A stretch of 2,870 bases of DNA from Naegleria gruberi (taxonomy: Eukaryota): assembly GCA_000004985.1 (NCBI GenBank), contig GG739242.1. The stretch is one strand, 5' to 3'. This document shows, piece by piece, positions 919-1,338 of this stretch (positions are counted from its first letter, which is position 1; every line of letters begins with the position of its first letter). The translations under genes and the position numbers were made by a program. A model generated the notes under the pieces. It was not told the origin of the DNA, did no database searches, and saw only the letters and a list, made by a program, of their open reading frames with translations.

Positions 919-1338
919 CTATTTTTCAATAAATTCTCAATTGACCAAAAAAAAAACGTACCTATGAATGAGTGCTCTTGGTTTCAGTGAATGTAAATAA
1001 TCCATACCACTTGCAATTCCTTTCAAAATTTCAATCTTACTTTTCAAATCAAGATTTTTCCTTCCACATTTGCATTGTGCAATAATAGAATCTAAACTTC
1101 CATTTTCCAAATATTCCACAACCATATACTTGTTAGTATTCGAAAGGGTAACCCCATAAAACCTCACAATACTTGGATGCCTCAAGCTATTCAAAAGGCT
1201 TGCCTCATGTTCAAACTCATCATTGGATATCTCACTACTTTCAGTCTTGATACTTTTCAGCGCAACTTTAGTTTCGTTCCAATTTGCTAAAAAAACAGTA
1301 CCCATCGCTCCTTCCCCAATTCTCTTTACAATTTCAAT
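375..1338 (-). other. Protein kinase catalytic domain (TKL-like, predicted active), interrupted by the intron at 919..961.
   Basis: Subdomains I through XI are recognisable in order: GxGxxGxV, VALK, alphaC Glu, [11 protein letters not shown], APE, DxYSF, CW..P..RP. KVCDFGLS and DVYSF are typical of the TKL group, including Raf/MLK-like and amoebozoan TKLs. Confidence 0.85.
919..961 (-). other. Spliceosomal intron, 43 nt, GT..AG, phase 2. Sense strand: GTACGTTTTTTTTTTGGTCAATTGAGAATTTATTGAAAAATAG.
   Basis: Exon 1 ends ..ATT CAT AG (His at 964-966, AG at 962-963). The minus-strand donor is GTACGT at 961-956 and the acceptor is TAG at 921-919. Joining AG to A(918) gives AGA, so the spliced sequence reads H-R-D-L-K-P-G-N, the universal kinase catalytic loop. 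Without splicing the frame runs HRYVFFLVN then TGA (937-939) and the HRDLKPGN motif is destroyed. Confidence 0.8.

Follow-up and report, generated by a model that had tools for sequence, protein, structure and literature searches.

A short GT-AG intron within the HRD motif of a receptor-like kinase gene from a Naegleria-like heterolobosean

Truncated or decoy isoforms of receptor kinases can arise through intron retention or intronic polyadenylation. Examples are sFlt-1, TrkB.T1 and the retained-intron isoform of Arabidopsis CPK28. The concept is the one that a preliminary description had proposed for the locus analyzed here: an intron in or before the kinase domain is not removed, and the result is a ligand-binding, catalytically dead protein. 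The known isoforms are documented at the RNA and the protein level and are regulated, whereas our case is known from sequence alone and has no conserved intronic element.

A second and more ordinary comparison is with the short U2-type introns of protists and fungi that rely on intron definition (e.g., Paramecium and Yarrowia). Like the intron described here, they run from GT to AG, are tens of nucleotides long, AT-rich and not a multiple of three in length, contain in-frame stops, and occur in lineages that possess NMD factors. A general and well-established view holds that short introns that are not 3n long or that contain a stop are favored since their retention errors are exposed to NMD; the principle that a premature stop met on retention sends the unspliced RNA to NMD is likewise described as general (PMC11334263; PMC2911113). 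The published mean for Naegleria is longer (126–203 bp). Mean intron length is 203 bp in N. gruberi and 126–144 bp in N. fowleri, far above 43 nt; when reads were mapped in N. fowleri, however, the shortest intron allowed was 30 bp, a limit set “based on an assessment of predicted genes” (PMC8296547). The NMD factors UPF1, SMG1 and SMG9 are encoded in N. gruberi (PMC5709506), whose transcriptomes do show intron retention as such (PMC6142364). Our literature search found neither gene-specific intron-retention data for Naegleria nor a description of Naegleria PMP-repeat receptor kinases.

The window, i.e., the whole stretch of 2,870 nucleotides that we analyzed, carries on its minus strand a gene whose two exons are separated by 43 nt (Table 1). 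Read without removal of these 43 nt, the gene consists of two frames: one is open from 2868 to a TGA at 939-937, the other from about 929 to the stop at 359-357. Excision of the 43 nt turns them into a single open frame of 822 codons that reads through HRDLKPGN to the stop at 359-357. Open reading frames on the plus strand that cross the site (812-967 and 817-990) are mechanical antisense ORFs, which we rejected as unsupported. The sequence 3' of the stop codon (1-356) contains no notable ORF, no Rfam match and no identifiable neighboring gene; we presume that it belongs to the 3' UTR or lies between genes.

Table 1. Features of the gene and its intron in the window
Feature	Position	Strand	Basis or comment
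U2-type GT-AG spliceosomal intron, 43 nt, phase 2	919..961	minus	lies in the Arg codon of HRD; excision restores the frame; only in-register pair; same codon and phase in L001 and L084; N. gruberi model is broken at that residue
5' splice site GTACGT, next to exon AG (962-963)	956..961	minus	read from the sequence; homologous introns have GTATGT and GTGAGT
T10 (U10) run, intron positions 6-15; A10 on the plus strand	947..956	minus	not shared by the introns of L001 and L084
In-frame TGA, met without intron removal	937..939	minus	unspliced translation
3' splice site TAG, also an in-frame stop in unspliced RNA	919..921	minus	read from the sequence
Upstream exon, partial, open to the window edge	962..2868	minus	PMP-repeat-like ectodomain (~1576-2868), TM helix (~1503-1575), juxtamembrane segment, kinase N-lobe to His-Arg; collinear with N. 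gruberi P0001
Downstream exon	357..918	minus	catalytic loop from the Asp of HRD, DFG, APE, C-lobe, stop codon (357-359); 63% identity to N. gruberi P0041

The 43 nt (961 to 919, GTACGTTTTTTTTTTGGTCAATTGAGAATTTATTGAAAAATAG) have a GC content of 23%. With a slash marking the splice borders, the site reads CAT AG/gtacgt...aatag/A GAT. The exon on the 5' side ends in ...ATT CAT AG (to 962), and the exon on the 3' side begins with A GAT TTG AAA CCA GGC AAT (from 918). Joining the two rebuilds the codon AG/A, an arginine; the intron thus follows the second codon position of this Arg and is in phase 2. The preliminary description was thus right to place a phase-2 intron of 43 nt within the HRD motif. 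It had, however, put the intron between His and Arg; in fact the Arg codon itself is split, which effectively separates HR from D.

The borders follow from an enumeration of all GT or GC donors and AG acceptors between 800 and 1100. It gave 46 frame-keeping pairs, and only the pair 961 to 919 brings HRDLKPGN into register with the homologues. The other 45 were rejected: they either delete conserved segments of the kinase or insert unrelated residues. We also rejected an alternative acceptor, TTGAG at intron position 26, as its frame meets a TGA. The junction of 962 with 918 that had been predicted before is right.

As in U2-type introns, the 5' end is GTRNGT-like and the 3' end is YAG (AG/GTACGT ... 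AATAG/A). The donor differs from GTAAGT at one position (+4), as does GTATGT, and it is close to the donors of relatives (GTAAGT, GTATGT and GTGAGT). The preliminary description had itself rated it as good, and AG/GTACGT is strong. For the branch point there is only a loose match to yUnAy (TTTAT, with the A 11 nt before the AG) and no motif that is common to the three homologous introns described below.

The spliced product appears to be a catalytically competent eukaryotic protein kinase, judged from its Pfam matches and from the presence of all catalytic motifs. Both matches run unbroken across the junction: Pkinase (PF00069) covers residues 512–811 with E = 2.3e-56 and 191.5 bits (cut-off 31.7), and PK_Tyr_Ser-Thr (PF07714) covers residues 511–813 with E = 2e-53 and 181.8 bits. 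The motifs are found at residues 518 (GEGAMG), 535 (VALK), 635 (HRDLK), 655 (DFG) and 681 (APE). Between the EE.PY segment and the conserved G.RP.IP motif of the C-lobe there is an insert that is variable in length and poorly conserved in the family (~600-720 on the minus strand; columns 300-345 of our alignment A1); in the window it reads NSIKMRKVISNTLDSREGDLQQFSFSIP.

The gene has an apparent orthologue in N. gruberi, which stands in the annotation as a pair of “predicted proteins.” The best match to the window protein is XP_002670975.1 (P0001; NAEGRDRAFT_73913, 636 aa), with 57% identity over 635 aa, collinear with window residues 12–636 and covering the ectodomain, the TM segment and the N-lobe. 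It ends in ...SLIHR, at the very residue where our intron begins. The C-lobe matches XP_002670976.1 (P0041; NAEGRDRAFT_73914, 166 aa) with 63% identity. The two locus tags are consecutive and lie on the same contig of 250,472 nt. Since the first model ends at LIHR and the second comes next on the contig, the reference annotation appears to have split the orthologue at the intron site. The second model begins at the first Met after DFG, and the 24 residues DLKPGN...GLSKL are in neither model. A very short intron that is missed will lead a gene finder to split a gene model. The split of the N. gruberi orthologue is probably such a case, its intron being deduced from the models.

Two further genes, on metagenome contigs of ENA sample ERZ929261, carry an intron in the same place. 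In the first (L001) it is 56 nt long (...ATT GTT CAC AG/GTATGT...TTTTAG/A GAT TTG AAA CCT GGA AAT), in the second (L084) 35 nt (...ATA CAT AG/GTGAGT...GATCAG/A GAT TTA AAG CCA GGC AAT). All three introns are in phase 2 within the AG/A codon for Arg. The comparison of orthologues that had been proposed as a check on the presence and position of the intron thus comes out in its favor: L001 and L084 share codon and phase, and the N. gruberi model breaks at LIHR. The product of the second gene clusters at 90% identity with N. gruberi NAEGRDRAFT_76915; its own identity to the window C-lobe is only 34%. That 208-aa model (MIRDLKPGN...) starts within the 35-nt intron (L084:42-76), its “MI” being intron sequence, and the exon for the N-lobe (YLHGGKDNCVIIHR/) sits upstream of the intron.

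One could also argue that the 43 nt are never removed, and that a pseudogene, an insertion or an assembly artifact breaks the kinase. The N. gruberi annotators, after all, modeled no intron here. We consider this highly improbable, for the following reasons. First, the insert begins with GTACGT and ends with TAG precisely at the borders that restore the frame. Second, separate contigs have inserts at the identical codon and phase that differ in length (35 and 56 nt) and in sequence, again with GT..AG ends. Third, the exon on either side is long, has an open frame and is conserved, and the catalytic motifs are all intact.

The intron position is not found throughout the family. HRDLKPGN is uninterrupted in ten homologues at the aligned columns of A1. 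In all fetched proteins together we counted 141 contiguous occurrences of the motif, and for one of them (P0161) the motif is also contiguous on its genomic contig (L082). A protein search with the TM and N-lobe segment returned two proteins, both with a contiguous HRD. In a metagenome scan based on the family alignment we obtained 80 loci of at most 46% identity, and none of them has an intron at HR/D. No transcriptome-derived protein above 57% identity was found in the protein searches. Judged by these sequence comparisons, the position is old within the kinase family, being shared with the N. gruberi orthologue, as deduced from its models, and with two further genes, and missing from many paralogues. 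It is thus a patchily kept feature of one branch of the family.

An ATAG direct repeat of 4 nt lies on both sides of the intron (919-922 and 962-965; CATAG/GT...AATAG/AG), so that a 43-nt deletion moved by 1–4 nt would yield the identical product. Such a repeat could mimic a target-site duplication or a TA-bounded excision, and the size of the intron is like that of ciliate IESs. One might therefore think of another kind of intervening sequence, namely a U12-type intron, a ciliate-style TA-bounded IES or a recent introner-like element. We regard all of these as next to impossible. The 5' end is GTACGT (GTACGTTT) and does not fit the U12 consensus (A/G)TATCCTT, and the U12 branch site TCCTTAAC is absent from the intron. 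Over its 822 codons the frame meets neither TAA nor TAG, so the genetic code is standard, and the nearest relatives are Naegleria, not ciliates. The repeat looks coincidental as well, since the homologous introns have only AG in common at their flanks. Past the splice sites, the three introns have no similarity to each other, which also argues against a recent introner-like element.

Outside the kinase, the protein is receptor-like in layout. A strongly hydrophobic TM segment of 25 residues (AHTAIILAAVFGFTILLVLLIIGIV) is followed by KFYNRERKEKK, and the N-terminal part of 431 residues lies on the other side of it from the kinase. N-glycosylation sequons are no guide to topology: there are 8 in the 431 ectodomain residues and 6 in the 366 cytoplasmic ones, a similar density on both sides, and we have discarded them as evidence. 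The ectodomain diverges faster than the protein as a whole (47% identity to the orthologue, compared with 57%). Its residues ~147–280 give weaker matches, with repeated hits, to many proteins, and Chlam_PMP repeats (PF02415) are present in those that we checked, in several of them together with a kinase. For the window protein, Pfam gives no PF02415 match at E <= 0.01, although GG[AVI][IVF]x repeats occur at residues 162, 187 and 225. As it stays below the Pfam threshold, we call the ectodomain PMP-repeat-like.

Proteins with Chlam_PMP repeats, a TM segment and a kinase form a family with members in N. gruberi (P0164) and among metagenome proteins (P0165, P0172 and P0174). PF02415 is at or above the cut-off in these four proteins. 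They are built like the window protein: PMP repeats come first, then a TM segment and a Pkinase domain. The N. gruberi member, NAEGRDRAFT_53768 (778 aa), has 45% identity to the window protein over 768 aa. It differs in that its motif, HRDLKCGN, is contiguous in the annotated protein.

Taken together, positions 919-961 of the minus strand are very probably a short GT-AG intron that is constitutively removed. The gene, as read from its sequence, would encode a receptor-like kinase of a Naegleria-like heterolobosean, with a single TM helix between a PMP-repeat-like ectodomain and a cytoplasmic TKL-like kinase. We infer splicing itself, and its efficiency, from the GT-AG boundaries, the restoration of the frame, the conservation of the position and the integrity of the kinase. 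From general knowledge of splicing, removal would fall to the major spliceosome: U1 would pair with AG/GUACGU, and an adenosine at the branch site, in the A/U-rich 3' half of the intron, would attack the donor. Joining to the UAG/A acceptor would then rebuild the Arg codon of HRD and with it an intact, catalytically competent kinase.

What happens to RNA that escapes splicing? Retranslation of the unspliced RNA gives ...LIHRYVFFLVN and then the TGA, eight codons in, exactly as the preliminary description had it: ectodomain, TM helix and N-lobe, ending in IHRYVFFLVN. Within the window, this product would have at least 643 aa. We compute that about 580 nt would be added to the 3' UTR. The early stop and the longer 3' UTR make the unspliced RNA a likely substrate for NMD. 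Hence, transcripts that escape splicing are most likely low-level noise that would be cleared by NMD, and not the source of a functional isoform.

The alternative is that the intron is deliberately kept under some conditions. The product, a membrane-anchored ectodomain with TM helix and N-lobe and without a catalytic loop, would then be a decoy receptor or a dominant-negative one; that the ectodomain binds a ligand is an assumption. The computed truncated product fits this idea. Intron retention does occur generally in N. gruberi transcriptomes (PMC6142364), and at least three related genes have kept the intron position immediately ahead of the catalytic Asp, which makes the truncation point available across the family. 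Yet the same truncation arithmetic holds for almost any intron within a kinase domain, and many paralogues manage without this one.

None of the sequence hallmarks of a regulated retained intron is found at the locus, neither conserved intronic elements nor weak splice sites, a gating RNA structure or a conserved tail peptide. In the alignment of the three homologous introns (A2), conservation is limited to the splice sites and exon flanks and does not extend to the interior. Donor and acceptor are both good. Folding of 83 nt (the intron with its flanks) gave no structure above that of shuffles: at −8.7 kcal/mol (z = +0.83) the sequence is matched or exceeded by 167 of 200 shuffles, and Rfam has no match on either strand. 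The peptide tails that read-through would add also differ between genes: RYVFFLVN and a stop in the window, RYVFE and a stop in a homologue, R and a stop in L084, while the N. gruberi model ends at R.

The preliminary description had named features of the intron that could make splicing regulatable, among them a T10 run at the 5' end and the lack of a pyrimidine tract at the 3' end. The run, which had been placed at 945-954, is in fact at 947-956; it overlaps the donor hexamer by one base, the sixth. Of the three introns compared, the one in the window alone has it. A convincing 3' pyrimidine tract is present in neither L001 nor L084. Its absence is thus common to the homologous introns and no peculiarity of ours. 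In the few related contigs that we examined, introns are as a rule short (35–56 nt) and without a 3' pyrimidine tract. That these features are special is not supported.

The other pointer to a decoy isoform was the combination of an in-frame stop with a length not divisible by three. This combination is the default for short AT-rich introns. An in-frame stop is found in 79% of random 43-mers of window composition. Moreover, the TAG of the acceptor also lies in frame, which guarantees a stop whatever the interior of the intron looks like; every shuffle of the interior keeps one. Both properties, expected by chance or default, are usually read as promoting NMD (PMC11334263; PMC2911113), the factors for which are present in Naegleria (PMC5709506).

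We saw two other very short introns in related amoeba contigs. A paralogue on contig L083 has a phase-0 intron of 46 nt (L083:616-661, GTAAGT..CACAG), which separates AP from E in its APE motif. A PLP-decarboxylase gene has one of 39 nt (L082:4312-4350, GTAAGT..CATAG); its length is 3n, and its acceptor TAG is in frame.

Regulated retention at this locus therefore seems to us quite unlikely. Its broader version is very unlikely: that several Naegleria PMP-repeat receptor kinases exploit the short, stop-containing intron before the catalytic Asp, with stage- or stress-specific retention giving kinase-dead membrane receptors that titrate ligand or poison dimers. If true, it would be a protist counterpart of the truncated-receptor isoforms of animals and plants. 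The decoy-receptor idea would become moderately interesting if support came from transcripts; the sequence favors none of it.

Our analysis shows that the intron is genuine, correctly delimited and ordinary in kind, and that the functional reading attached to it is speculative and unsupported. What it gives is the correct structure of an unannotated receptor kinase gene of the Naegleria type, which is mainly housekeeping. It also indicates that the N. gruberi annotation holds the orthologue in two models (NAEGRDRAFT_73913 and NAEGRDRAFT_73914), and that the paralogue NAEGRDRAFT_76915 is truncated at a very short intron that went unrecognized. A minimum intron length that is set too high in gene finders may systematically break heterolobosean genes.
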